Assembly (NCBI GenBank): GCA_964650405.1
Contig: CAZYTO010000002.1
Location: 5,164-69,163, forward strand
Direction: 5' to 3'
DNA length: 64,000 bases
Source: an uncultured Thermoanaerobaculia bacterium
GTDB taxonomy: Bacteria; Acidobacteriota; Thermoanaerobaculia; Gp7-AA8
In this document: positions 3-53,915 of the stretch, in pieces
How the letters are laid out: every line of letters begins with the position of its first letter
Numbering within the stretch: the first letter of the stretch is position 1
Program-made: the position numbers and the translations under genes
The notes under the pieces: model-generated
The model's database searches: none
Seen by the model: only the letters and a program-made list of their open reading frames with translations
Told to the model about the DNA's origin: nothing

Positions 3-1001
3 ATGGTCATCCCGGCGGCGCGCCGCAACAACAACTTCTCCGTGGTCGCCGACGCAGGGCCGTCGTACTTCGTCAAGAGCATGCTGCCCGGCGCGGCCCA
101 GGCGCAGGAGACGCTCCGGCAGGAGGCGACGCTCTACGGCATCGCCCGCGCGACGGAGGCGCTCGCGCCGCTGCGCGAGGTGCTTCCGGAGTATCACCTC
201 TACGATCCGCAGCGCAGTCTCATTATCCTCGGCTATCTGCGCGGGTCCCGTACGTTGAGCGAGCTGCACGCGCAGAGCGGCGGCGCTCCCGAATGGGCGG
301 CCGAGCTGACCGGCCGGGCCCTCGGCGCGGTGCACCGGGCCGGCGCGTCGGCGCTGCCGGGCCTCGATCCGGCGTCGTTCAAGCGCCAGACGCCATGGGC
401 TCTGTCTCTGCACCAGATCACGCCGACCTTCGGCCAGCCGGGCTCGCAGTTGCAGACGCTCCTGCTCAGCTATCCCGAGTTCGGCGAAGCGCTCGACACC
501 ATGCGCAACGGCTGGCGCGTCAACAGCGTCATCCACGGCGACATGAAGTTCGACAACTGCCTGGCCGTCGAAGCCGGCGGCACGCGCACGCTGAAGATCA
601 TCGACTGGGAGCTGGCCGACCTCGGTGACGAGCTGTGGGACGTGGCCGGCATCGTCCAGAACTACCTCTTCTGGTCCGCAGTCTCGGCGCAAGCCACGGC
701 CGACGGCGCCTGGAGCGTCGGCATGCCGTTCGAGACGCTCCTGCCCGCCATGCGCACGTTCTGGAATGCGTGGGTCGCCGCGCGGGAGCTGCCGGACGCC
801 GAGGCGGGAGTCTCGCTCGAGCGGTGCGCCTCGTATGCCGCGGCGCGGCTGCTCCAGAGCACGATGGAGATGCTCATGGTGTCGCCGGCCATGTCGCAGC
901 AGGTCGCGCTCCTGCTGCAGACGAGCCTCAACGTCCTGCGCAGTCCGGGCGCGACGGCGCGGATGATCGCAGCCGGCACGGAGGCCGGTGCGCATGCCTG
1001 A
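3..1001 (+). CDS. kinase-fold phosphotransferase (APH/protein-kinase-like), candidate Ser/Thr kinase of a split lanthipeptide-synthetase-like trio; 5' end may lie upstream of the window
   Basis: Catalytic-loop motif HGDMKFDNC and IDWELADLGD in the ORF-track protein; stop overlaps the next ORF (ATGCCTGA at 994-1001). Confidence 0.6.
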   Translation: MVIPAARRNNNFSVVADAGPSYFVKSMLPGAAQAQETLRQEATLYGIARATEALAPLREVLPEYHLYDPQRSLIILGYLRGSRTLSELHAQSGGAPEWAAELTGRALGAVHRAGASALPGLDPASFKRQTPWALSLHQITPTFGQPGSQLQTLLLSYPEFGEALDTMRNGWRVNSVIHGDMKFDNCLAVEAGGTRTLKIIDWELADLGDELWDVAGIVQNYLFWSAVSAQATADGAWSVGMPFETLLPAMRTFWNAWVAARELPDAEAGVSLERCASYAAARLLQSTMEMLMVSPAMSQQVALLLQTSLNVLRSPGATARMIAAGTEAGAHA

Positions 1002-1977
1002 GACGGCCTGCGTCGACGAGATCCGCCAGGCGCTCGGCTCGGTGGTGATCCGCTCGCCGGGAGAGCTCCTCATCGACGGAGAGCTCTGCCGCGTTCCTGA
1101 CCCGATCGTGCTGTTCCAGATGAACGCGGCGGCCTTCGCCTCGTCGCCGATGCTGGCCCTCCTGCAGACCCAGATGTATGCGCGCCTCTACGGGCGCAAT
1201 GCCGCGCCGACGACTCCCGGCGAAGACCTCACGCCCGTGCTCACCGCCGCAAATCGCGGCCGGGAGCGGTGGGAAGAGGGATGGATCGTCAGCAGCGGTG
1301 TGGCGGGGGGGATGCTCACCGCCACGCGTGACGACCTCACCACGAACCTACTGCCCTCGCAATACGTGATGCCTGCCGGCGGGACCGTCACGCCGGGAAC
1401 GAGCCTCACGGTGCTCATCGCGAAGGAGGCGCCTGGGTGGCAGCCCGGCTTCTACTACGCCCTCAGCGAGGTCCCCATCGACGTACGCGATGAATCGCGC
1501 ATGATGCGCATCTACTGGCACATCACCGAGGAGGGCGCGCCGAAGCTCGTGACGGCGGTGTCGGAGGTGCTGAACGCCTTCCGCATCCCGTTCCGCTTCA
1601 AGGTGCTCAACCAGCGGGGACTCTTCGGCCGGGCCGACGCGGCGGTGATCTTCACGGCGCGGCGCTGGTACGGCATCGTGCGGGAGCTGCTGCCGCGCAT
1701 CCTCGAACGCGTGGCGGACTCGCTGCTCGACGCGACGCCGCTCATGGCTTGCCGCATCGCTCCCGGCGTTGCGCTGGCCGAAGACCCCGGTATGGCCGGC
1801 GACAGCTTCGGCACGCATCGCACGCGGCTTCTGGCCCTCGCCGTCTGGAACAGCTACACGAAGGGCTTGCAGGACGTCGAGGCGCGGATGGGGGCGCTGG
1901 AGGAGATCTTCCGCGCCAGCGGTCTCCGCGTGGACAAGCCGTACCTCAATCCCGGATCGGCGGATCTTTATGCGTGA
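988..1977 (+). CDS. HopA1-effector-like protein, candidate phospho-Ser/Thr lyase; alternative ATG start at 994
   Basis: 329-aa ORF between the kinase and LanC genes with overlapping stop/start on both sides; motifs MRIYWHI, FRFKVLN, GRADAAVIF recalled from HopA1-family proteins (not searched). Confidence 0.45.
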   Translation: MRMPETACVDEIRQALGSVVIRSPGELLIDGELCRVPDPIVLFQMNAAAFASSPMLALLQTQMYARLYGRNAAPTTPGEDLTPVLTAANRGRERWEEGWIVSSGVAGGMLTATRDDLTTNLLPSQYVMPAGGTVTPGTSLTVLIAKEAPGWQPGFYYALSEVPIDVRDESRMMRIYWHITEEGAPKLVTAVSEVLNAFRIPFRFKVLNQRGLFGRADAAVIFTARRWYGIVRELLPRILERVADSLLDATPLMACRIAPGVALAEDPGMAGDSFGTHRTRLLALAVWNSYTKGLQDVEARMGALEEIFRASGLRVDKPYLNPGSADLYA

Positions 1978-3211
1978 GCTCTACGGCGACGTCGCCCAGC
2001 GCATCGCCGCGGCGCTCTGCCGCGATGCCATCCGCAACGGCGACCACTGCAACTGGCTCGGCGACTCGATGGAGAGTCTCGACGGCCGCATGGTGAGCGT
2101 CCATCGGTCGTTCGGCGGAGATCTGTACGCCGGCACGTCGGGCATCGCCCTGTTTCTCGCCGAGGCGGACCGGTTCCGCCCCGATCCTCTCTTCCGCCGG
2201 ACGGCACGCGCCGCCATCGAGCACGCCCTGCATCGGGCGGACGCGATCGCGCCCGACCTGCGCGCCGGCTTCTACACCGGAGGCACCGGCATCGGCTTCG
2301 CCGCCGCGCGGATCGGCGAGCTGTTCGACGATGCGACGCTCGTCGAGCGCGGGCTGGCACTTTTCGAGAGCGCCTCGGCCATCGATGAGAACGCGCGCCT
2401 CGACCTGCTGGCCGGCGTGGCCGGGATCATCGGACCGCTGCTTGTGCTGCATGCGAAATACCGGCGTGACTGGATGCACGAGCGCGCGCTCCGGGCCGGC
2501 GACGTGCTGCTCGGCCGGGCCCGGACTTCGCCGCAGGGCGTGTCCTGGAACGTGCTCGACGAGCAGTGGACGACGGCCGACCTCACGGGCTACTCGCACG
2601 GAACGGCGGGAATCGCGCTGGCCCTGTTCGAGCTCGCGCATGCCACGGGCGAGCAGCGGTTCGTCGCGGCGGTGGAGGGGGCGCTTCAGTACGAGCGGGC
2701 ATGCTTCTCCCCGCAGCAGCAGAACTGGCCCGACTTCCGCCGCACCAGCGCGGGCTCGGCCAGCTCCGTGGGCTACTCGCTGGGCTGGTGTCACGGCGCG
2801 CCGGGCATCGGCCTGAGCCGGCTGCGTCTCTACAAACTCGCACCGCGGCCGGACCTCTTCGAAGACGCGGCGGCCGCCCTGCGTGGAACCTACACGCCGC
2901 TGGCCACGCTGACCCCGACGGCGATGTTCGCGCTCTGCCACGGCGCGGCGGGGAACGCCGAATTGTTCCTCGAAGCAGGAGCGGTCTTCGGCGACTCCGG
3001 CTACACGGACATCGCCGAGGCCATCGGCCGGCAGGGCATCGAGCGCTATGACGAGCCGCGGAGACCGTGGCCTTCGGGTGTGACCGCCGGCGGCCAGACG
3101 CCCGGCCTGATGCTGGGACTGGCCGGCATCGGCTACTTCTACCTCCGCCTGCTCGCATATGCCGACGTGCCGTCGGTGCTCGTGGTGGCGCCGGCGCGAA
3201 CGCTATCGTGA
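1970..3211 (+). CDS. LanC-like lanthionine cyclase
   Basis: LanC signatures SHGTAGIALAL, GWCHGAPGIG, LCHGAAGN (His base and Cys/Cys-His zinc ligands); ATG 1970 overlaps the upstream stop (ATGCGTGA); the track start at 1769 would overlap 200 nt and is rejected. Confidence 0.85.
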   Translation: MRELYGDVAQRIAAALCRDAIRNGDHCNWLGDSMESLDGRMVSVHRSFGGDLYAGTSGIALFLAEADRFRPDPLFRRTARAAIEHALHRADAIAPDLRAGFYTGGTGIGFAAARIGELFDDATLVERGLALFESASAIDENARLDLLAGVAGIIGPLLVLHAKYRRDWMHERALRAGDVLLGRARTSPQGVSWNVLDEQWTTADLTGYSHGTAGIALALFELAHATGEQRFVAAVEGALQYERACFSPQQQNWPDFRRTSAGSASSVGYSLGWCHGAPGIGLSRLRLYKLAPRPDLFEDAAAALRGTYTPLATLTPTAMFALCHGAAGNAELFLEAGAVFGDSGYTDIAEAIGRQGIERYDEPRRPWPSGVTAGGQTPGLMLGLAGIGYFYLRLLAYADVPSVLVVAPARTLS

Positions 3212-43622: not shown

Positions 43623-45593
43623 ATGGCGCGGCTCGATGCCCTTCTGCTGATCGCGTACTACCTCGCCCTCGGCATCCTCGCGATCTACAGCGTTCATCGG
43701 CTCTATCTTGTCAGATTGCGCCGCACGCACGACGGGCCGCGTCCCCCGCTCGCGGAGCCCCAGACGTGGCCGTCTGTGACTGTGCAACTCCCGCTCTTCA
43801 ACGAACCGAACGTGGCCGCACGCCTCATCGACGCCGTGGCCGCGATCGACTACGCCGGACCCTTCGACATCCAGGTTCTCGACGACTCGAACGACGTCAC
43901 CACAACCATCGTCGCCGGGCGCGTCACGTTCTGGCGCGGGAAGGGGGTCGCCATCGCCCACCACCGCCGTGGAACGCGCGACGGGTACAAGGCCGGCGCC
44001 CTCGCCTACGGGCTGGCAAGGAGCGACAGCCGGCTCTTCGCCGTCTTCGACGCAGACTTCGTCCCCCCGCCGGACATCCTCACGAAGATGGTTCCGCACT
44101 TTGAGTTGACGGACGATCGCGCCGGCCGGAGTGCGCTGGATGCGGCCGGCGGTTCGGAGATGCATGCGGCTGGTCACGCAGGTGCGAGAAGGCACCGGGA
44201 GGACACCCTCTCCCACCGGGAGAGGGTCGCCGCGGAGCGCGCATCTCCATGCGCTGAATCGTCGGCAGGTCGTCAGCGCAGCGGCGGGGTGAGGGGTCAA
44301 GGCTTTCATGGGGCTTCAGGCGACGGTCGTTCCACGGCTATGTTGCGTTGGTTCAACATCGTGCGTGGCAACCGAAGGAGGCGGCCCCTCACCCCGGCAC
44401 TTTCGCGCTGGTTGCGGCGAAGTCGATTCACGGTGATCCGAATCGCGCGCTCAAGTGCCGACCCTCTCCCGCGGGGAGAGGGTGGTGCCGGTTCGCGCCA
44501 CCTGTGTCTGCTACGTTCGAGCGCCACCCGCGCCGTTTTCAGAGCAGAGGGTCGCCGCGACGCGCGTATGGCATCAGCTGTGGAGGCGGTGCCGGCTGAG
44601 AAGAACGGGAACGCCCCGCACCCCGCCCCCGCCGCGCGGCCGCCGGTAGGCATGGTGCAGGCGCGCTGGACGCACCTGAATCGCGAGCACTCGCTGCTCA
44701 CGCGGGTGCAGGCCATCTACCTCGATGCGCACTTCACCGTCGAGTCGGCGGCGCGCAACTTCGGAGGGCGGTTCTTCAATTTCAACGGAACGGCCGGCAT
44801 CTGGCGGCGTGAGGCCATCGACGACGCCGGCGGGTGGTCGGCGTCGACGCTGACGGAGGACCTTGACCTGTCGTACCGCGCCCAGCTCGCCGGATGGAGG
44901 TTCGTCTTCCTTCCCGACGTCGAAGTGCTGGCCGAGTTGCCTGAGGCACTGAACGGGTTTCAGGAGCAACAGCACCGCTGGGCCAAGGGCTCGATCCAGA
45001 CAGCGCGCAAGCTCCTCCCGCGCATCCTCGGCGGGACCCAGCCGGCGCGCGTCAAGGCGGAGGCCTTCTTCCACCTGACGAACAACTCGGCGTACCTGCT
45101 CACGCTCGTCCTGGCACTGCTCATTGTGCCCGCCATCGTCGTCCGGCAGCGCCTGGGCATCCTCTGGACGATGTCGATCGACGTCGTACTCTTCTTCGCA
45201 TCGACCGGCTCGGTGCTCCGCTTCTACATCGAAGGACAGCGCCGCGCCGGGCGCACGCGGCCGACCGCGCGCGAGCTTCTGGCGGTGATCCCCATCGGCA
45301 TCGGGATCTCCATCCGCAACTCCGCGGCGGTCATCGAGGGCCTGTTCGAGCGGGGTGGCCACTTCCGGCGAACGCCGAAGAGCGGCGACCGCGGGCGGGC
45401 CGTACCGGAGGGGCGGCCGCGCCTTCCCATTGCCGAGCTCGTTCTTGCCTCATTCTTCGTCACCGCCTTCACGGCGTTTGCCGGCGCCCGCCAGTGGATC
45501 GCGTTGCCGTTCCTCATGCTCTTCACCGGCGGCTTTCTGTACGTCGCCGCTGCCGGGCTCATCGAGCGCTTCACATTCCAGACACGAATGTGA
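43623..45593 (+). CDS. family-2 processive glycosyltransferase (cellulose-synthase-like) carrying a large in-frame insertion
   Basis: QLPLFNE, VLDDSND, FDADF and QEQQHRWAKG (QxxRW) motifs; about 181 extra codons between HFE and VGMVQARW. Confidence 0.75.
   Translation: MARLDALLLIAYYLALGILAIYSVHRLYLVRLRRTHDGPRPPLAEPQTWPSVTVQLPLFNEPNVAARLIDAVAAIDYAGPFDIQVLDDSNDVTTTIVAGRVTFWRGKGVAIAHHRRGTRDGYKAGALAYGLARSDSRLFAVFDADFVPPPDILTKMVPHFELTDDRAGRSALDAAGGSEMHAAGHAGARRHREDTLSHRERVAAERASPCAESSAGRQRSGGVRGQGFHGASGDGRSTAMLRWFNIVRGNRRRRPLTPALSRWLRRSRFTVIRIARSSADPLPRGEGGAGSRHLCLLRSSATRAVFRAEGRRDARMASAVEAVPAEKNGNAPHPAPAARPPVGMVQARWTHLNREHSLLTRVQAIYLDAHFTVESAARNFGGRFFNFNGTAGIWRREAIDDAGGWSASTLTEDLDLSYRAQLAGWRFVFLPDVEVLAELPEALNGFQEQQHRWAKGSIQTARKLLPRILGGTQPARVKAEAFFHLTNNSAYLLTLVLALLIVPAIVVRQRLGILWTMSIDVVLFFASTGSVLRFYIEGQRRAGRTRPTARELLAVIPIGIGISIRNSAAVIEGLFERGGHFRRTPKSGDRGRAVPEGRPRLPIAELVLASFFVTAFTAFAGARQWIALPFLMLFTGGFLYVAAAGLIERFTFQTRM
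44103..44645. repeat. palindrome-rich insertion (REP/MITE-like) inside the GT2 reading frame
   Basis: CCCTCTCCC-N3-GGGAGAGGG hairpins at 44206-44226 and 44462-44482; GGGGTGAGGGG (44286-44296) / CCCCTCACCCC (44385-44395); direct repeat AGAGGGTCGCCGCG near 44221 and 44547. Confidence 0.55.
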
Positions 45594-45636: not shown

Positions 45637-46284
45637 GTGGTCATGCACCGCCAAAACCTCGGCGACATGCTCCTCGCCGCCAACCTCATCGACGAGGTCC
45701 AGATGCAGATCGCCCTCGTCGAGCAGAAGGAGACCGGCAAGCGCTTCGGCTCGACCCTGGTCGACCTGCAGTTCATCGACGAGAACGTGCTGGCGGCCTT
45801 CCTCTCCAAGCAGATCGACGTTCCCTGCATCAGCCTTCTGCGCATCGACATCCCGAAGAAGGTGCAGCGCAAGTTCACGCGCGAGCTGGCCGTGGCCTGT
45901 CAGGCCATCCCGGTGCGCATCGACGACGGAGGCCGCCTCGAAGTGGCCATGGTCGATCCGACGGACATCGAGATCCTCACCCGGATGGAGGGTCTCGTCT
46001 CGATGACGGTCGTGCCGCTCATCGCCCCGGAAAGCTCGATCATGGCCATGATCGAGAAGTTCTATCCGGAAGAGATCGACGGCGACGACACCAATGCCGC
46101 CCGCCGCCAGGCCGATCCGGGAAAGCAGTCCGTGCCGGCCGATCCGATCTTCTGGGACATCATCGAGGAGCTGGACAGCGCTGATCTGGACCGGCGCCTC
46201 ACCCGCATCGAGCAGAGCCTCGATCGGATCTGGACCCTGCTGGAGAAGGTCCTGCGCACGCTGGAGATGCCCGAGCGCCGCTGA
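45637..46284 (+). CDS. stand-alone MshEN/GspE-N-terminal-domain protein (c-di-GMP-binding motif type)
   Basis: Two 24-residue motifs NLGDMLLAANLIDEVQMQIALVEQ and RFGSTLVDLQFIDENVLAAFLSKQ with a 5-residue spacer; GTG 45637 or ATG 45643. Confidence 0.7.
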   Translation: MVMHRQNLGDMLLAANLIDEVQMQIALVEQKETGKRFGSTLVDLQFIDENVLAAFLSKQIDVPCISLLRIDIPKKVQRKFTRELAVACQAIPVRIDDGGRLEVAMVDPTDIEILTRMEGLVSMTVVPLIAPESSIMAMIEKFYPEEIDGDDTNAARRQADPGKQSVPADPIFWDIIEELDSADLDRRLTRIEQSLDRIWTLLEKVLRTLEMPERR

Positions 46285-46293
46285 GCGCGCGGA

Positions 46294-46926
46294 TCACAGC
46301 GGCGGCTTCTGCGTCGTTACCTTCTCCGGCCCGGTGGTCGTGGTGGTCGTCGTCTGTTGCTGCGACTGCGCGGCCTGCTGCAGGCGGCGCTCCACCGCGG
46401 CCGGATCATCGTTACCGTCGAGGATGTTGTCGTCCATGCCCGCGTTGGCACGCTCCAATCGCTTGCGCTGGTCCTCTTCCGCCTTCTTCTTTTCCTTGTC
46501 GGCGATGGCCTTTCGCTCCGCGTCGGCAGCGGCGACCATCTCCTCCACCGTCTTGCCGATGTCGCCGGGCGGCGTGGGAGGGAGAGCGGCCGGATTGCTG
46601 CTGCCGGTGGTGATGTGGCCTCCGCTCCGGGCCAGGTTGTCGTTGTTGATGGAAATCTTCGACTTCTTGTTGCCGCGCGCGGCATTGGTGCGTGCGGCGG
46701 CGGCGGCGAGAGAGGCGGGGGCCGGCTGCGTCCCGGGAGCGGCGGCGAGGGTCGTCGTGGTCGCCTGCCTGGCAGGGGCCGGCGCGGGGGTAGCCGTCGT
46801 TGCAGCGGTGGTGGTGGCAGGCGCGGCAGTCGTGGTCTGCTGCGCCGGCGCGGGCTGGTCCGCGGGCGCCGCGGCGAGGGACCACGTCATCAAGAGAGCG
46901 GCTGCCGCAAGGGCGGGCGATTTCAT
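46294..46926 (-). CDS. secreted Thr/Ala/Pro-rich low-complexity protein
   Basis: Signal peptide MKSPALAAAALLMTWSLAAAP; internal ATG 46926; charged coiled-coil-like C-terminal half. Confidence 0.5.
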   Translation of the reverse strand: MKSPALAAAALLMTWSLAAAPADQPAPAQQTTTAAPATTTAATTATPAPAPARQATTTTLAAAPGTQPAPASLAAAAARTNAARGNKKSKISINNDNLARSGGHITTGSSNPAALPPTPPGDIGKTVEEMVAAADAERKAIADKEKKKAEEDQRKRLERANAGMDDNILDGNDDPAAVERRLQQAAQSQQQTTTTTTTGPEKVTTQKPPL

Positions 46927-47022
46927 CAGGGGCCTCCGTGTCCATTCAATGTTACGCTTCGCCGCGAAATTTCTCTCCAGCCTCGGCTTTTGCGACCCGA
47001 ATCTTGCAATCCCGCCCACTGA

Positions 47023-47595
47023 ATGTCGGCTGAGCTTCTCCTCCACAAGTTCGGCTACCTGGCCGTCTTCATCGGAACCTTCCTGGAAGGGGAGACGATC
47101 CTCGTCATGGCCGGCTTCTTCGCGCAGCGCGGCTATCTCTTCCTCCCCTTTGTCGCGCTCGCTGCCTGCCTCGGCGCCTACATCGGCCACGTCTTCTGGT
47201 TCTGGCTCGGCCGCACGCAGGGGGTCAAGCTGCTCGACCGGTTCCCGAAGATGAAGCGCCACTTCGGCCGCGGCATCCGTCTCTTCGAGCGCTACGGGGC
47301 GCCGGCCATCTTCATCACCCAGTGGCTCTACGGTCTCCGCATCACGTGCGCGGTCATCATCGGCACGTCGAAGATCTCAACCAGCAAGTTCCTCATTTAC
47401 GAGGCAATCACCTGCGTGGTCTGGGCGGCCATCATTTCCGCCGCCGGCTTCTTCTTCGGCCAGGCCGTGGAGAAGATCCTCGGCCGCGCCGCACACATCG
47501 AGAAATGGGGACTCTTCGCGCTCGTCCTCATCGGGCTCAGCGTCTGGGGCTACCACCAGTGGAAAGACCGTCGCGAGGCGAGCTCGGAAGAGTAG
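47023..47595 (+). CDS. DedA-family membrane protein
   Basis: GYLAVFIGTFLEGETILVMAG motif typical of the DedA/SNARE-associated family. Confidence 0.85.
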   Translation: MSAELLLHKFGYLAVFIGTFLEGETILVMAGFFAQRGYLFLPFVALAACLGAYIGHVFWFWLGRTQGVKLLDRFPKMKRHFGRGIRLFERYGAPAIFITQWLYGLRITCAVIIGTSKISTSKFLIYEAITCVVWAAIISAAGFFFGQAVEKILGRAAHIEKWGLFALVLIGLSVWGYHQWKDRREASSEE

Positions 47596-47605
47596 AGCCC
47601 TTCCC

Positions 47606-47902
47606 TCAGTGCGCCGTCGCCAGGGTGTCCTGCGGTGCGAACTGCACCTCCGTCCACTTCCCGTCGACGTTCGCCATCAGCGTGCCGACCACACGCCCTT
47701 TTCCCGTGCTCACGATGCGGATGGCGAGATCGGAGCCGCGCACGAGCTTCGACGCGGGCGCCAGGACCTGGATGGGCTGGCCGTTGGTGTCGGTGGTCAT
47801 GGTCCACGTCGGCCGATGCTGCGCCGAGAGGGCCACTGCCGAAAGCAGGACACCGGCGACGATACCGAAGAGAAAGATCGCGAGAGACCGCACCTTGAAC
47901 AT
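47606..47902 (-). CDS. small membrane-anchored or exported protein, last gene of the pseudopilin operon
   Basis: 98 aa with an N-terminal hydrophobic helix; 75 nt downstream of the pseudopilin gene. Confidence 0.45.
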   Translation of the reverse strand: MFKVRSLAIFLFGIVAGVLLSAVALSAQHRPTWTMTTDTNGQPIQVLAPASKLVRGSDLAIRIVSTGKGRVVGTLMANVDGKWTEVQFAPQDTLATAH

Positions 47903-47976
47903 CGAGAATCTCCTTCCGCTTTGAATAGTAGACGCTCGAGCGGTGCTTGCGGTTCCCCTGTGGTGGATGCGGCGCG

Positions 47977-49026
47977 TCAGAAGCGCCCGGACGACGTCAC
48001 GAACCCCTGTTGCGCCTCGTAGGTCGAGGCGCGGTAGTTCGACATCAACAGCAGGCGTGTCATGACCTTCCGGGCCTTGGCCGGTCCGACCATCTTCACT
48101 TCGAACCCGGCCGGGAAATGCGGAAAGTTCGTATCGGCCACGGCGTAAGCGAACACGGGGAGGCGGAGGGGGAAGGGCTTGACCGGCTTATCGGGCGCAA
48201 AGGCGATGGAGTAGTCCATCTTCCCGGAGATGCGTCCGCCGAGGAGCTCGGGAAAGAGGCTCTTCGTGGTGTTGATGTTGATCTTCGGAGTCTTGAGCGG
48301 CGCGGCGAAGGCTCCTGCCTTGGCAATGTTGAGATCGTAGAAGGCCTGGGTCACGGGCTGGGTGGTATCCCCCGCCGTGTCGCTATTGGCGGCGATGACC
48401 TTCGGGGGCACGACCTGGCGCTGGGCATGCGTCAGGGTACTGAGCTGGAAGTAGTCCGCATATTCGACGCTCGTGCTCTCCACCAGGTCGAGCGTGATGC
48501 CGGTGCCGCCGAAGCTGCGCTTGGCGTTCGGCGAGAGAAAGAAGTACTCGAAGCGGTAGCGGTCGATGAGCATCTCCACGTCGGGCGTCTTGGGGTTGTT
48601 GTCGTCGTCGTAGAAGACCGACAGCGGGGAGAGTTGCCGGGCGATGAGGAGCGAGTTGCCGGTCAGGCGGTTCGAGCCGTTCCCCGTGTCCGGCTCGATC
48701 GTCGTCGTGGTGCTGTCGATGATGGGCAGGAGCGTATCCGCCCAGACCGGCTGGGCCGGCGGAAGCTGCAGCGCCGAGCGGTAGCCGGCGCCGGTGGCAT
48801 CCTCCTGGAAGGCCGTGCGCGTCTGCAGGATCTCGGTCTGGATGGTATTCACCCCGCGCTCGGTCATGATCGTCAGGTCGTTGTGACTCTCGTTGAACAG
48901 CGTGAGATGCAGCGTCCTCTCGATCATCGAGTAGACGATAATCATCAGCCCCGAGAAGATGATCAGCGTCACCAGGATCTCGGGAAGGGACATGCCGCGT
49001 TGCGCGCGTCGCCGTCTTGCTGTCAT
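47977..49026 (-). CDS. prepilin-type N-terminal cleavage/methylation protein (PilW/GspJ-like minor pseudopilin)
   Basis: Leader MTARRRRAQRG then MSLPEILVTLIIFSGLMIIV (G-1, E+5). Confidence 0.7.
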   Translation of the reverse strand: MTARRRRAQRGMSLPEILVTLIIFSGLMIIVYSMIERTLHLTLFNESHNDLTIMTERGVNTIQTEILQTRTAFQEDATGAGYRSALQLPPAQPVWADTLLPIIDSTTTTIEPDTGNGSNRLTGNSLLIARQLSPLSVFYDDDNNPKTPDVEMLIDRYRFEYFFLSPNAKRSFGGTGITLDLVESTSVEYADYFQLSTLTHAQRQVVPPKVIAANSDTAGDTTQPVTQAFYDLNIAKAGAFAAPLKTPKININTTKSLFPELLGGRISGKMDYSIAFAPDKPVKPFPLRLPVFAYAVADTNFPHFPAGFEVKMVGPAKARKVMTRLLLMSNYRASTYEAQQGFVTSSGRF

Positions 49027-49029
49027 GGC

Positions 49030-52000
49030 TTACCTCTTGAGGAAGACGCGGTACTGGTGGAACGAGTAGTGGAGGGGAATGGTGTCGCGGTAGGCCTCCA
49101 CGCGCACGACGTAGTTGCCTTTGGGGAACGTGGCCGCGGGCACGCTCCACGCGTAGGAGGACAGCGTGGTCAGGTAATTCGGATCGGTGGGTTTCACGCC
49201 CGGTGTGGCCGGCGTGCCGTCGAACATGGACAGCCAGGACTTGCCGTTGTCTCGGCTGTACATGAGCACGTAGCTGACCGTGGTGTCCTCGGCGAACGTA
49301 TTGCTGTAGGCCGGGGTATACGGGAGGCCGTCCCAGCGCAGCCATTGCGTCGTCCAGGCCACGCTCAGCGAAGAGATGTTGTCCGTATTGGTCGAGTCGT
49401 TCGGCGACGTGATCGAGACGCGCGGCAGCTCACGGACGCGCGAGTCGTCCGGCTTGTTGGCGGCGTTCTTCAACAGGCCCCCGGCCATGTAGCTCTGCAC
49501 CAGGCTGAGGAACGACCAGCGGGCGATGAACGACACGCCTGACTCGCCGGTGGGCGACAGGCCGTTGACCACCACGAAGGCGGCATCATTGCCGTCTTTC
49601 GCCGCCAGCAGGGAGCTCGACTGGATGTTCGTCGAGTGCTTGTAGTAGTGCGCCAGCGCCGTCAGGGTCATGGTGTTGCCATAGACCGGCTGCAGGAAGT
49701 GGTCGGGGTTCATCGTCGTGTCGTTGATGTTGACGTCGAATGGCCGCGCGCTGGGGATGGTGTCCGCCAGGGGGAAGTTGTACGTCGACCGGATGTCCTT
49801 GCCGTCCGTGTCGATGTTGCTGTCGGTGCCGTCCTGGTAGCGGTGGTGGAAGGTCGACTTCGACGAGCCGCTCCAGAAGAAGGTCGTGCTCCCCTGGGCG
49901 TTGGTGCGGCGCACGGCGTCGGTGAGGTCCGTACCGAAGGGAAGGTTGGAGGTGATGTTGCCGCGCAGCGCGCGGGAGTATTTGCCGGCACCCGTCCCCG
50001 TCGGCAGGTTACCGGTGGTCGACCAGGTGGCCCACTGGGAGTCGGGAGCCAGCTCTCCCAGCCAGGAGAGCGACCACCAGTAATTCGCGGCCGTGGAGTT
50101 GTCGCGGATGTACTTCACGCCGCCCGGGATGGTGTTGATGGTGGCATTGGTGATCGACTGTTCGTAACGGGTGTTGGTCGTTCCGTCGAACGGCTTCGAA
50201 GACACCGGGATACTGTTGGCGAAACCGTTCGCGCTGTCGTAGCCGATTTCGTTCCCGATGCCGACGTAGTAGTAAGAGAAGCCGGTCATCGTGGTGTAGA
50301 CGGAATGCGAGCGCACCACGGCCTGCCGGAGGACCTGGAACATGCGGTGGATGTCGATCTCCAGCGTGCCGTTCCCGGTGTCCCAGCCGTCGTTGTCGTT
50401 GGTCGAGTCGGCGGCGTTGTTCTTGACGCCGTAGTAGTTGCCGCTGCCGGCCGGCGCGTCATAAGACCAGCCCGGCCAGGAGGCGATGTTGTTGCCGGCA
50501 GCCGAGTCGAAGTCCTCGAAATAGCGGTTGTAGCCCATGCCCAACTGATTGGCGCGGGCGCGGCCCGAGCCGAGGTGCGGCATCTTCACGTCGGCATACG
50601 GGCAGTGGCGCGGATCGCCCAGGAACTGGAAGCGCTCCGTGACCGGCATGTTGGGGTCATTCGTGGCATCGCCGTAGAGCCATGTGTCCGTGCCGCGCCA
50701 GGCGTAGGTGCGGGAGAGGTTCGTCGGCGCGTTGCCCGGCGGCGGATAGACCGTTCCGGTGGTGATGTCCGAGCCGATGCGGGTCTCGATGGTGAGCATG
50801 GCATTGGCGGGTAACTGTGCGGACGGAATCTGGATGATCCAGCGGGCCGTGTTCTTCTCGACGTCGCCGGCGGTGGAGAGGTCGGTCTGGAACGGATTGG
50901 GAGGTGCGCCCCCGGTGAGGTCCTCGACCGGCGCGGGGATGTACTCCAGCCCGTACAACTGCCGGGTCGTATTCAGTCCCCCCTGCTTGCAGGGCTTCGT
51001 GTTGTCGTCGGTGACGCACGGCGCCTTCAGGGGCGAGTTGTAGAGGCTGAAGATCGTGTCGCCGCCGGCGATCGTCCACGACCACCACATCTTGTTCGCG
51101 CCGGACGTCGTCGAAGCGAGCTGGTCGGTGTACGGATCGGGGCTGCCGTTACCGTCGAAATCGACGCCTCCCGTCACGGCCACGACACTGTTGGGAGTGG
51201 GGGCCAGCGTCACGCCCTTCACCGTGACGGTGATGGGGGTCGAGCCGGCTACGCCCTTGCCCAGCCAGTCCGGCACGGTGGCCGGGTTGGGGGCATTGTG
51301 GTACGAGTAGACGCGCAGCGAGACGTTGTCCGTGTTCGCGTAGTGCAGGTTGTCGGGGTGCGTGACGACGCGGATGTTGGCGTACTTGGACGGGTCCTTC
51401 GCCGCGTCGGAGTAATTGCGAACGGGCGGGAACGGGAACAGCTCGCCGTGCAGGTTGATGACCATGGCGTTGCGGTATTTGTTCGGATGCATGTACATGT
51501 CATCGAGCAGGAGGCGCAGGGTGGGCTCCGTCTTCGACTCCAGGCCCACGGCCACGCGGGCATTGAAGAGGTTCAGCTCGTCCTGGTAGCGCATGCCGTT
51601 GTTGTACTGATCGGCGAGCGAGTACGGGAGCTGGTTCTCCTTGACGTCATAGCCGTTGGTGACGCTGCCGTCGACGTTGACGCGGCCGGTGAAGAAATCG
51701 GGCGGGTAGTAATTGTCGACCGCGGAGCCGCTGGGCATCATGCCGGGATAGAAATAGACCGAGTCGATGGGCTGATTGGAGTCGGCGGCCTTGTTGACAT
51801 ACGGCGTGTAATACGGATCGCGCCCGTACGAAAGCTTGCGGATCCAGTGGCGGCGGAACTGCAGTCCGGGCTGGCGGGACTCCAGGTCGTTCATGGCGCT
51901 TTCGACGTACGGGACGATGTTCTGCATGTACAGCCACCATCCCGGGATGTTCTCGATGGCCACGAGATAAATGTCGTAGACCTGCGTCGGCGGCGTGTTC

Positions 52001-52470
52001 TGTCCGATGGTGCTCAGGACGCTGGCCACCTCGGCGAGCAGGCGCGGACCGCCGTCCAGGTTGACGAAAACCTTCACGTTTACGATGCGCAGGTCGCTGG
52101 CGCCGGGAACCTTCTGCACCGTCACGCGGCGCTCGTAGAGCCACTTGTTGTTGCCGATGAACGTGTTGCCGCTGAGGGTGACGCTCGGATCGGTGACGCT
52201 CTTGTCCGTGGTGAGCACAGGCTGGTTCACCACGCCGTCATCGTAGGCGTCGAGCATGTTGATGTTCGTCGCGTCCTGCGTCTGGACGAGCGCCCGCAGC
52301 TCCTCCAGCATGGAAATGGCCTTCTGTGTGGCGAACTGCTTGTTGATGTTGTCCTGCGTGGCCCGGTAGGACGTGTTGACCAGCCGCATCGAGAACGCGA
52401 TCGTCATGCCGATGATGGCCAGGGCTACGACCGCTTCTGCCAGGGACATTCCTCGTTGAAGTCTGCGCAT
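49030..52470 (-). CDS. giant prepilin-type protein (about 1146 aa), unknown extracellular domain
   Basis: Leader MRRLQRG then MSLAEAVVALAIIGMTIAF; GGGGAG 8 nt upstream of ATG 52470; Asn/Thr/Tyr/Trp-rich body. Confidence 0.7.
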   Translation of the reverse strand: MRRLQRGMSLAEAVVALAIIGMTIAFSMRLVNTSYRATQDNINKQFATQKAISMLEELRALVQTQDATNINMLDAYDDGVVNQPVLTTDKSVTDPSVTLSGNTFIGNNKWLYERRVTVQKVPGASDLRIVNVKVFVNLDGGPRLLAEVASVLSTIGQNTPPTQVYDIYLVAIENIPGWWLYMQNIVPYVESAMNDLESRQPGLQFRRHWIRKLSYGRDPYYTPYVNKAADSNQPIDSVYFYPGMMPSGSAVDNYYPPDFFTGRVNVDGSVTNGYDVKENQLPYSLADQYNNGMRYQDELNLFNARVAVGLESKTEPTLRLLLDDMYMHPNKYRNAMVINLHGELFPFPPVRNYSDAAKDPSKYANIRVVTHPDNLHYANTDNVSLRVYSYHNAPNPATVPDWLGKGVAGSTPITVTVKGVTLAPTPNSVVAVTGGVDFDGNGSPDPYTDQLASTTSGANKMWWSWTIAGGDTIFSLYNSPLKAPCVTDDNTKPCKQGGLNTTRQLYGLEYIPAPVEDLTGGAPPNPFQTDLSTAGDVEKNTARWIIQIPSAQLPANAMLTIETRIGSDITTGTVYPPPGNAPTNLSRTYAWRGTDTWLYGDATNDPNMPVTERFQFLGDPRHCPYADVKMPHLGSGRARANQLGMGYNRYFEDFDSAAGNNIASWPGWSYDAPAGSGNYYGVKNNAADSTNDNDGWDTGNGTLEIDIHRMFQVLRQAVVRSHSVYTTMTGFSYYYVGIGNEIGYDSANGFANSIPVSSKPFDGTTNTRYEQSITNATINTIPGGVKYIRDNSTAANYWWSLSWLGELAPDSQWATWSTTGNLPTGTGAGKYSRALRGNITSNLPFGTDLTDAVRRTNAQGSTTFFWSGSSKSTFHHRYQDGTDSNIDTDGKDIRSTYNFPLADTIPSARPFDVNINDTTMNPDHFLQPVYGNTMTLTALAHYYKHSTNIQSSSLLAAKDGNDAAFVVVNGLSPTGESGVSFIARWSFLSLVQSYMAGGLLKNAANKPDDSRVRELPRVSITSPNDSTNTDNISSLSVAWTTQWLRWDGLPYTPAYSNTFAEDTTVSYVLMYSRDNGKSWLSMFDGTPATPGVKPTDPNYLTTLSSYAWSVPAATFPKGNYVVRVEAYRDTIPLHYSFHQYRVFLKR

Positions 52471-52481
52471 GGCTGCTCCCC

Positions 52482-53672
52482 TCATGGAACCCACGGTGTG
52501 CGGCTGAAGTGATAGTTGCCCATCTGCAACTTCACCTGGTCGAGAATGCCGGAGTCGTAATCGATCTCGGAGACGTCGGAGCCGCCGGTCAACTGGACGT
52601 TTCCGTTGACCACCACCGCGCCGCTGATCTGCGTCGGCGGCGACATGACCAGATCGCCGCCCACCCAGACCACGCCGTCATAAAACGTGTTCGACTGGGG
52701 ATTGAGGATGAGGTTCCCCATGACGATCAGGATGCCGCTGCCGCTGAGACGCTTGGTGGGGTTGAAGTTCGCGTTGCCCTTGATGATCACCAGCGACATG
52801 GGCGGGAGGGGGTCGGGAAGCTGGCTTTCGTCGTCGACGACGAGGTCCGCCATGGCCGTCAGCTCCGGCGCCTCCGCCCCGAAGACCTTGTTCAAGGCGA
52901 AGGAGCCGGAGGTCGAGCTCAGGGCCGGATTGCCGGTGACCGTTCCCAGGAACTTCGGAGAAGTGCCCGTGCCGTAAGCGACGCCGATGCCTGTGCTGCC
53001 GCCGATGACGCGGCCGGCCTTGGCGATGTTCATCTTGCCGCTGTCCGCGCCGCTGAGCGCGGCGTTGGCCGGAAGCAACAGGCTCATTCGCTGCACTTCA
53101 TTGCGCAGCGTGGCCTGGGTGATGATCGTATTGCCCCCCAGTCCCGGCCCCTGTGTACTGTCGTTCTGGATGTAGATGATCCCGTGCGAGGTGAGCTGCC
53201 AGATCGTCCCGGGCTGCGGTTTGCCGCGGCGCTGGCTGACGTCGAGCACCTCCGCCTTCCGCACTTCATAGCGCGCGAAGACCCGCGCCTGCCCCATCAC
53301 TTCGTACGTGCGCACCAGTCCGATCTTCGGGTCCTCGGTTTCATTGATGGGAGGGACGTGGGGAGGGGTATGCGGGCAGACGCCGTTCGGATCGAGGTCC
53401 GGCGCAAACGTCGTCACGGGCTGCTGCTTCTGGTGGATATACCAGGACAGCGAATTGGTAAGGCCCGCCGAGGCCGCGTTCTCGGCCTGCCCCTGGTAGG
53501 CGAGCTGCCGCGCCACGAAGCGGCCCGACGTGGCCGTAATGGTCAGCGTCGTGAGGAGCAGCAGCAGCAACAGCGTCGCCGCAAACAGGACGAGAGCCAG
53601 GGCAATGCCGCGCTCTTTGCGGCCTGCTCTCCGCCGTCGCGTCCGACCTTTGGTTTTGTCCCCAGGGCACAT
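52482..53672 (-). CDS. PilX/GspK-like pseudopilin
   Basis: KERGIALALVLFAATLLLL N-terminus without Glu+5, QAENAASAGL helix; GGAGG 8 nt upstream of ATG 53672. Confidence 0.6.
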   Translation of the reverse strand: MCPGDKTKGRTRRRRAGRKERGIALALVLFAATLLLLLLLTTLTITATSGRFVARQLAYQGQAENAASAGLTNSLSWYIHQKQQPVTTFAPDLDPNGVCPHTPPHVPPINETEDPKIGLVRTYEVMGQARVFARYEVRKAEVLDVSQRRGKPQPGTIWQLTSHGIIYIQNDSTQGPGLGGNTIITQATLRNEVQRMSLLLPANAALSGADSGKMNIAKAGRVIGGSTGIGVAYGTGTSPKFLGTVTGNPALSSTSGSFALNKVFGAEAPELTAMADLVVDDESQLPDPLPPMSLVIIKGNANFNPTKRLSGSGILIVMGNLILNPQSNTFYDGVVWVGGDLVMSPPTQISGAVVVNGNVQLTGGSDVSEIDYDSGILDQVKLQMGNYHFSRTPWVP

Positions 53673-53886: not shown

Positions 53887-53915
53887 AAAAAGAAAAGGGG
53901 CGTTACGCCCCTTTG
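53887..53915 (-). terminator. rho-independent terminator (copy 2), downstream of ppdK
   Basis: Identical core AAAAGGGGCGTTACGCCCCTTTGT; minus-strand tail TTTTCTTTTT. Confidence 0.7.

Follow-up and report, generated by a model that had tools for sequence, protein, structure and literature searches.

A conserved three-gene unit encoding a giant modular pilin in Thermoanaerobaculia and Planctomycetota, a candidate minor-pilin set of a type IV filament-class machine

What would a bacterium do with a prepilin-type protein of 1146 residues? The question is raised by three consecutive minus-strand genes, here called the trio, in a stretch of DNA from an uncultured Thermoanaerobaculia bacterium (64 kb, 66% GC; hereafter the window, whose positions serve as coordinates throughout). 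In order of transcription, these genes encode a K-like protein of 396 residues (52482–53672), the giant protein itself (49030–52470), and a J-like prepilin of 349 residues (47977–49026). The list of open reading frames (ORFs), family models, alignments, and an AlphaFold2 model together point to the giant being a modular minor pilin. Taken as a whole, the evidence makes it likely that the trio is a minor-pilin set, that is, the initiation or tip complex, of a filament machine of the type II secretion system (T2SS) or type IV pilus class. The preliminary description of this DNA had proposed a fibre-tip display system for a very large adhesin or enzyme, a reading that gains support from the prepilin motifs, the synteny of the trio in two phyla, and its linkage to machinery genes in relatives, and from these we infer the tip location and the adhesin or enzyme role.

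All three proteins begin with a short basic leader that ends in Gly(−1) and runs directly into a hydrophobic segment of about 20 residues. The N-terminus reads MRRLQRG↓MSLAEAVV in the giant and MTARRRRAQRG↓MSLPEILV in the J-like protein, and a regular expression search over all six-frame ORFs of the window found the canonical prepilin motif in these two proteins only. The K-like protein carries a basic leader of 22 residues ending in ERG (...RKERG↓IALALVLF) and lacks Glu+5; a hydrophobic helix follows the leader, and the C-terminal third is Gly-rich and repetitive. Model TIGR02532 matched the J-like protein with 23.4 bits, above its cutoff of 16.3, while PF07963 and the PilV models matched the window giant below cutoff; the Pfam N_methyl domain was found in 22 of 34 diverse giants, with a best E-value of 1e-8. 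In the giant family, Gly−1 is at least 90% conserved in both a 40-sequence and a 72-sequence set, and Glu+5 (E12) is invariant in the smaller set and at least 90% conserved in the larger one. Both positions are invariant in the J-like family (Glu+5 being E16; n = 35). Across 36 members of the K-like family, the Gly of ERG is invariant and Glu+5 is never present. The class III signal-peptide N-termini of the preliminary description, including the K-like N-terminus without Glu+5, were accordingly confirmed both in the window proteins and in their homologues. The trio proteins would be expected to be cleaved and N-methylated by a prepilin peptidase and incorporated into a filament, for which the prepilin peptidase gene near the trio in nine related loci is contextual evidence.

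Structure prediction, which the preliminary description had suggested as a check, yielded a pilin module followed by a head of about 1000 residues that matched nothing known. An AlphaFold2 run with 40 close homologues was poor (predicted local distance difference test, pLDDT, of 65) and its Foldseek search uninformative; with 72 sequences including Planctomycetota, pLDDT rose to 91.7, with a predicted TM-score (pTM) of 0.86. The latter model has an N-terminal helix at residues 10–64 (55 residues) and a four- to five-stranded sheet at 104–170, with pLDDT mostly 80–91. The N-terminal part of the giant (approximately residues 1–170) is hence predicted to have the pilin architecture of an alpha1 helix and an antiparallel sheet. 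The roughly 1000 residues that follow combine mixed alpha/beta structure with beta-sandwiches, the last of which is FN3-like (1017–1145), and in these terms the giant is a modular pilin composed of a pilin module and a very large extra part. When the 72-sequence model was compared with PDB and BFVD, Foldseek found no match at E ≤ 1e-3, and the best matches were generic Ig, FN3, or cohesin sandwiches with a query TM-score below 0.1. Sequence searches of PDB with the giant alone and with profiles of the three families returned nothing beyond pilin N-termini, the sole matches of the giant family profile being those of Geopilin, PilA, and MshA. Likewise, Pfam found no domain common to the 34 diverse giants other than N_methyl. 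The preliminary description had recognised no domain in the giant, and the Pfam, NCBIfam, and Foldseek searches agree in finding none beyond the pilin module; sequence, profile, and structure searches together placed the giant in no known family unrelated to pili.

Several specific readings of the head were considered and set aside. Readings as a PilY1-like propeller, a glycoside hydrolase, or an alpha-2-macroglobulin were rejected because the Foldseek matches were only generic sandwiches; Foldseek gave no propeller, and neither the PilY1 propeller model PF05567 nor the MshQ models matched the window giant or any of the 34 members. A DxDxDG-like loop at residues 436–447 is kept only among close Acidobacteriota giants, and an argument for a calcium site based on it was dropped since the loop is not conserved in the alignment of the wider family.

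Regarding the type of the pilin module, NCBIfam searches of the 34 diverse giants matched PilV in 19, GspI in 12, ComGE in 11, XpsI in five, GspJ and GspH in three each, and GspG in two. The best PilV match in this set had an E-value of 5e-9, and in the window giant TIGR02523 (PilV) scored 25 bits against a cutoff of 52.2 over 73 of 139 model positions. These matches lend modest support to the giant being an I-type minor pilin (PilV/GspI/ComGE).

The giant belongs to a large family, present in Acidobacteriota (mainly Thermoanaerobaculia) and Planctomycetota, with conservation along the entire protein. Word-indexed searching brought up 577 homologues. The top 120 of them are approximately 1100–1230 residues long, cover 96–100% of the query at 48–80% identity, and come from Thermoanaerobaculia or Acidobacteriota metagenome-assembled genomes; the database names, for those that have any, are ‘prepilin-type N-terminal cleavage/methylation domain-containing protein’, ‘PulG’, or ‘PilV family’. 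When 1.84 billion representatives, clustered at 50% identity, were searched exhaustively with a profile, 749 clusters reached E ≤ 1e-3 and 410 of these reached E ≤ 1e-30; most are 1030–1660 residues long. Scanning one genome per GTDB species for the locus identified 132 relatives, from which 79 loci were kept, about 46 in Acidobacteriota and about 27 in Planctomycetota (Phycisphaerales, Brocadiia, Planctomycetia). The planctomycetal giants show 35–42% identity along the whole length. The 72-sequence alignment, which spans 30–80% identity, contains 27 invariant columns, many of them Asp, Arg, His, Glu, or Asn, and conservation is even along the protein. The composition of the giant is also distinctive: compared with the proteins encoded in 9 kb of neighbouring DNA, it is rich in Asn (7.7 vs. 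2.6%), Thr (9.2 vs. 5.5%), Tyr (5.6 vs. 2.4%), and Trp (2.3 vs. 1.1%), as the preliminary description had stated, and depleted in Glu (2.4 vs. 6.5%), Arg, and Ala. No literature on the giant family was found, nor any specific to Thermoanaerobaculia pilins, acidobacterial or planctomycetal pseudopilins, or the Verru_Chthon cassette.

The three genes travel together. Neighbours were compared by tblastn and by clustering of all flanking ORFs, which placed the K-like gene directly upstream of the giant in 64 of the 71 loci with enough flank and the J-like gene directly downstream in 63 of 69. Where all three proteins gave long matches, 44 of 46 loci had the K-like, giant, and J-like genes next to one another in unchanged order, and the identities of the three proteins to their window counterparts co-vary (r = 0.94–0.96). 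The next commonest neighbour, DedA, occurs in 20 of 79 loci, only within the close clade that shares the general synteny of the window, and the remaining flanks are entirely different between lineages. Judged from this gene order and from the alignments, the trio is a conserved unit across Acidobacteriota and Planctomycetota. The preliminary description had compared the order K-like, giant, J-like with a tip-complex layout; the order itself proved conserved, and the assignment of the J and K types found no support from family models, as detailed below. In the most distant lineages the trio is not strictly fixed, since the K-like gene there is missing or moved. It is absent upstream of the giant in six loci of the Planctomycetota/Brocadiaceae (L058, L059, L064, L065, L075, and L082), and a K-like gene lies downstream of the giant on the opposite strand in L062. 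In the same six Brocadiaceae-type loci, a divergent pair of MsbA-like ATP-binding cassette transporter genes abuts the start of the giant gene.

In one acidobacterial sub-clade, whose giants are 44–49% identical to that of the window, the trio is embedded among filament machinery genes. The cluster opens with a prepilin peptidase (A24_N_bact and Peptidase_A24) and a PAS histidine kinase, followed by the K-like, giant, and J-like genes. After these come a prepilin of about 200 residues (N_methyl), a small secreted protein, a platform protein (T2SSF; GspF 299 bits), an ATPase with an MshEN domain (T2SSE; GspE 539 bits, PilB 534 bits), three small proteins, one of them T2SSM_b/GspM-like, and finally a TPR-secretin (GspD 170 bits). 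The prepilin peptidase gene was found in nine loci, upstream of the trio at a distance of 1.7–4 kb, the 200-residue prepilin in eight, the platform protein and ATPase in four to five, and the secretin in three, the last counts being limited by contig ends. The cluster was described from loci L032–L036, L068, L070, and L072–L076; it is complete in L032, L068, and L074, partial in L033, L034, L036, L070, L072, L073, and L076, and loose in L043. All machinery scores in the acidobacterial clusters are below the equivalog cutoffs, and by these profile matches the cluster is a divergent T2SS-like type IV filament system rather than one of an established type. The planctomycetal locus L043 has a PilT gene (400 bits; cutoff 319) and a PilB/GspE gene 5–6 kb downstream of the trio, and just upstream of it (L043:4578–8375, plus strand) are genes for prepilins of 168 and 184 residues, an arrangement that suggests tandem minor-pilin cassettes. 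The same segment also encodes a 517-residue protein without matches and a 382-residue protein with a PTPDL-family-like N-terminus. In the window, as in the majority of loci, only unrelated housekeeping genes surround the trio. The earlier designation as an orphan operon therefore holds for the window lineage and not for the family, which is machinery-linked in the sub-clade just described.

Minor pilins set the function of type IV filaments and the start of their assembly, and the trio can be fitted to such a role as follows. The N-terminal hydrophobic helices would insert all three proteins in the inner membrane, where a prepilin peptidase encoded elsewhere in the genome would cut them after the conserved Gly. 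Held together by their alpha1 helices, the three proteins would then form a heterotrimer that initiates polymerisation of a major pilin or pseudopilin and finally sits at the far tip of the fibre. In this way, a compact and strongly conserved head of approximately 110 kDa, covalently fused to a PilV/GspI-type module, would be carried at the fibre tip. Since the giant is itself a prepilin, it would be anchored by its own alpha1 helix, a single polypeptide doing the job of PilV together with a separate PilY1, PilC, or MshQ. The head would most likely bind a conserved environmental ligand or surface, or act on one enzymatically. From the features of the proteins and their genes we extrapolate here to their cleavage, their assembly as a heterotrimer, its place at the tip, and the binding of a ligand.

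A number of observations weigh against this assignment. The PilV and GspI scores of the giants are below the trusted cutoffs, and the Pfam models T2SSK, PilX_N, and PilX matched none of the 36 K-like proteins, for which Pfam returned no family at a meaningful level. An hhalign comparison of the K-like family with E. coli GspK gave a probability of 4.6% over 18 columns, corresponding to the ‘ERG-VAL’ stretch only, and the likeness to GspK is confined to the missing Glu+5, the ERG↓(V/A)AL N-terminus, and the position of the gene. The J-like family aligned with E. coli GspJ over 60 columns of alpha1 with a probability of 90%, GspG and GspH behaved similarly over 25–28 columns, and the window J-like protein matched no GspJ or PilW model in NCBIfam or Pfam. 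Overall, the comparisons of the three families with single E. coli GspG, GspH, GspI, GspJ, and GspK sequences detected the generic alpha1 helix only and did not discriminate between types, and the J and K labels, which follow gene position, protein size, and whether Glu+5 is present rather than family models, are unproven. Within the window, Pfam searches of about 50 ORFs matched no major pilin, prepilin peptidase, assembly ATPase, platform protein, or secretin, in line with the absence of pilus machinery reported in the preliminary description. Finally, adhesins are not usually conserved at 30–50% identity over 1100 residues in two phyla with many charged residues invariant; an enzyme or a structural part of a machine would fit better. 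This strong and even conservation argues against a fast-evolving host adhesin, and the alignments favour a head that binds a conserved ligand, acts as an enzyme, or has a mechanical function.

Three other explanations deserve consideration. The prepilin N-termini could be only inner-membrane anchors, cleaved or not, of a periplasmic or envelope complex that never enters a filament. Proteins with prepilin-like N-termini are very numerous in Planctomycetota, one of the two phyla in which the giant family is present, and a similar suspicion applies to prepilin-like proteins of Planctomycetota and Verrucomicrobiota; the solitary position of the trio in most loci, that of the window among them, would also fit, as would the bulk of a head of some 125 kDa and two 40-kDa partners, which would not easily pass a secretin. 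Against such a complex, Glu+5 serves pilin–pilin registration and not anchoring, and it is kept together with Gly−1 across two phyla, while one partner lacks it, as does the cap subunit GspK. Moreover, the trio of one sub-clade lies between the prepilin peptidase and the GspF/E/M/D-like genes, and type IV pili are known to carry proteins as large as PilY1 along with them (PMC13533445). An envelope complex outside any filament therefore seems unlikely to us. If the trio does belong to a filament, the linked machinery, best matched by T2SS models (GspF, GspE, GspM, GspD) in a cluster without PilT, raises the question of whether the giant is instead a structural piston head or gate-opener of a T2SS-like machine, a mechanical part rather than a ligand-binding device, which would make contact with the secretin or substrates during secretion without ever being displayed as an adhesin. 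The very even conservation of the head and the pTM of 0.86, which indicates one rigid body, would suit a machine part co-evolving with its partners. However, the machinery scores stay below the equivalog cutoffs, PilB and PilC models score nearly as well, L043 has a PilT gene near the trio, and characterised T2SS tips need no more than the small alpha-domain of GspK, so a piston head appears a rather unlikely role.

A further alternative, that the head is a tip receptor for DNA uptake in natural transformation, like ComZ, takes its appeal from the ComGE-type models that match 11 of the 34 giants and from the precedent of large tip minor pilins with DNA-binding modules (ComZ, cited in PMC8179133). 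The ComGE matches span only the N-terminal helix, however, and the head is poor in Arg and Lys relative to the proteome (4.8 vs. 7.6% and 3.1 vs. 3.7%, respectively), its composition rich in Asn, Thr, Tyr, and Trp being more typical of carbohydrate-binding or surface proteins. With comEA, comEC, and dprA not seen in any flank, we regard a DNA receptor as very improbable. The minor-pilin set, as the initiation or tip complex of a T2SS or type IV pilus-class machine, remains the explanation that we prefer. Within it, there is an outside chance that the head is an unseen fold, an enzyme or receptor for a ubiquitous polymer, held covalently on the tip of a retractable filament. If so, Thermoanaerobaculia and Planctomycetota would possess a ‘harpoon’ for capturing or processing macromolecules, and the fusion of an I-type pilin to a PilY1-sized head would represent a second, covalent solution to tip anchoring besides beta-strand addition to the K subunit.

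In the window, the genes of the trio are tightly joined. The four minus-strand ORFs of the preliminary description are present in the ORF list, and their third-position GC (0.85–0.90) equals that of the housekeeping genes of the window. The ATG of the K-like gene (53672) is preceded by GGAGG, the ATG of the giant gene (52470) lies 11 nt past the K-like stop with GGGGAG in front, and that of the J-like gene, identified by its TIGR02532 match and its conserved Gly−1 and Glu+5, lies 3 nt past the giant stop. Because these junctions are tight and GGGGAG and GGAGG stand upstream, the start codons chosen earlier are likely right; the intergenic gaps of 11 and 3 nt suggest translational coupling and, with it, a stoichiometric complex of the products. 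Upstream, two identical intrinsic-terminator-like hairpins, AAAGGGGCGTAACGCCCCTTT followed by a T-run, are found on the minus strand at 53914–53894 and 53826–53806, as previously described. They are 88 nt apart, lie downstream of the pyruvate phosphate dikinase (PPDK) gene, occur nowhere else in the window, and would terminate the PPDK transcript and therefore insulate the trio. The duplicated part is the hairpin of 21–23 nt only, the spacer not being duplicated. Rfam detected no RNA family between 45 and 56 kb.

Downstream of the J-like gene by 74 nt, an ORF at 47606–47902 (minus strand) encodes a 98-residue protein with a signal peptide; preceded by the strong ribosome-binding site GGAAGGAG, it looks like a real gene. 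The preliminary description had the operon end with this gene, and its membership of the module was not borne out: tblastn found no match in 83 fetched loci and none of 79 related loci has a counterpart, for which reason we place it outside the conserved module as what appears, from these comparisons, to be a lineage-specific gene.

The trio of the window lineage is placed between the PPDK and DedA genes, and the approximately 50 window ORFs searched with Pfam are ordinary chromosomal genes, including glyQS, PPDK, polA, selB, LigD, a resistance-nodulation-division pump, and DedA. Beyond the J-like side of the trio, a secreted low-complexity protein rich in Thr, Ala, Lys, and Glu is encoded at 46294–47262 (minus strand), with a probable start near the methionine of MKSPALAAA... 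It weakly resembles the small secreted proteins of cluster 12, which are encoded near the trio in the close clade (E-value 2e-8 to one member), and resembles even less the protein of cluster 22, encoded after the 200-residue prepilin where the trio is linked to machinery. The protein may be left over from an ancestral linkage, or the similarity may be merely compositional, and this weak, low-complexity similarity was not enough to count the protein as a member of the trio system. Farther away, a family 2 glycosyltransferase (GT2) gene at 43623–45593 (plus strand) contains an in-frame insertion of about 175 residues (about 520 nt, at approximately 44125–44646) relative to its orthologue of 473 residues in locus L009, residues 1–168 of the query aligning with 1–160 and residues 342–648 with 159–465. 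The insert holds two palindromic hairpins, CACCCTCTCCCACCGGGAGAGGGTCG, at 44204–44229 and 44459–44484, and looks like a miniature inverted-repeat transposable element (MITE)-like or repetitive extragenic palindromic (REP)-like element in, or disrupting, the gene. Directly downstream, at 45637–46284 (plus strand), lies a gene for a stand-alone MshEN (cyclic di-GMP-binding) domain protein, whose best NCBIfam matches are to the C-terminal part of NfrB, a cyclic di-GMP-activated glycosyltransferase. The pair is kept in 9–11 related loci and looks like a split NfrB-like system, unrelated to the trio despite its MshE/PilB-type domain. At the other end of the window (3–3211, plus strand), three genes overlap and together look like a split lanthipeptide-synthetase-like set, their products being an APH-like kinase domain, a HopA1-family domain, and a LanC-like cyclase.

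The significance of the trio lies partly in the family behind it: the giant is conserved at full length in two environmentally dominant, poorly studied phyla, and about 750 sequence clusters bear only generic ‘prepilin-type’ names. A ligand or activity of the head would give a function to this dark family and could explain the role of T2SS-like machines in Thermoanaerobaculia and Planctomycetota. How large tip proteins are held on a fibre is also a current question (PMC13533445), and the trio offers a natural case in which such a protein is itself a pilin.

Among known systems, the trio resembles the GspI-GspJ-GspK complex (with GspH) of the T2SS, in which three pilin-like proteins are likewise co-transcribed, two of them canonical prepilins and one without Glu+5. 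The K-like protein shares the ERG↓(V/A)AL N-terminus of GspK, the pilin module of the giant preferentially matches GspI, PilV, XpsI, and ComGE models, although below the family cutoffs, and relatives have the trio in linkage with GspD/E/F/M-like genes and with genes for a prepilin peptidase and a fourth small prepilin. In contrast, GspI has about 120 residues and the giant 1146, the J-like and K-like proteins (349 and 396 residues) are larger than GspJ and GspK and match neither family model, the gene order is K-I-J rather than H-I-J-K, and the trio is detached from machinery in most genomes. The FimU-PilV-PilW-PilX set with PilY1 or PilC and the MshD-O-P set with MshQ offer a second parallel, as their minor-pilin operons also contain a protein of approximately 1100–1200 residues (PMC13533445), with a presumed role in assembly priming and a tip position shared with the trio. 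In a recent model, a PilI-PilJ dimer recognises PilK, and a large tip protein (PilY1, PilC, MshQ of about 1200 residues, or CpaL) is held by beta-strand addition (PMC13533445). PilY1, PilC, and MshQ are non-pilins that dock non-covalently through a C-terminal beta-strand added to K, whereas the giant is itself a prepilin.

Another comparison concerns the Verru_Chthon cassette A–D (TIGR02596, TIGR02599, and relatives) of Verrucomicrobiota, an uncharacterised cassette whose layout is presumably like that of the trio; both are multi-gene prepilin-type cassettes with very different protein sizes, found in bacteria of the Planctomycetota–Verrucomicrobiota–Chlamydiota (PVC) group and in soil bacteria. 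The model for Verru_Chthon protein D weakly matched the 200-residue pilin of L074, and that for protein C gave weak matches to one L043 prepilin and two of the 34 giants. These matches are limited to the N-terminal helix and lie far below the cutoffs, and the NCBIfam model for protein A matched none of the 34 giants.

The trio also shares a principle with the modular pilins, which display a functional module attached to the pilin part; the largest noted in a 2021 InterPro survey had 860 residues (PMC8179133). Streptococcus sanguinis PilB and PilC, CofB, ComZ, and TadG/CpaL (PMC8179133, PMC13533445) have the same plan of an N-terminal pilin and an extra module, with tip exposure expected. The giant differs from them in its extra part, which spans about 1000 residues and in which neither a domain nor a solved fold can be recognised, in its two dedicated partner pilins, and in its conservation across two phyla. 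While the modular-pilin principle is already known, a giant, full-length-conserved member with two dedicated partners is new, and it extends that principle rather than overturning it.

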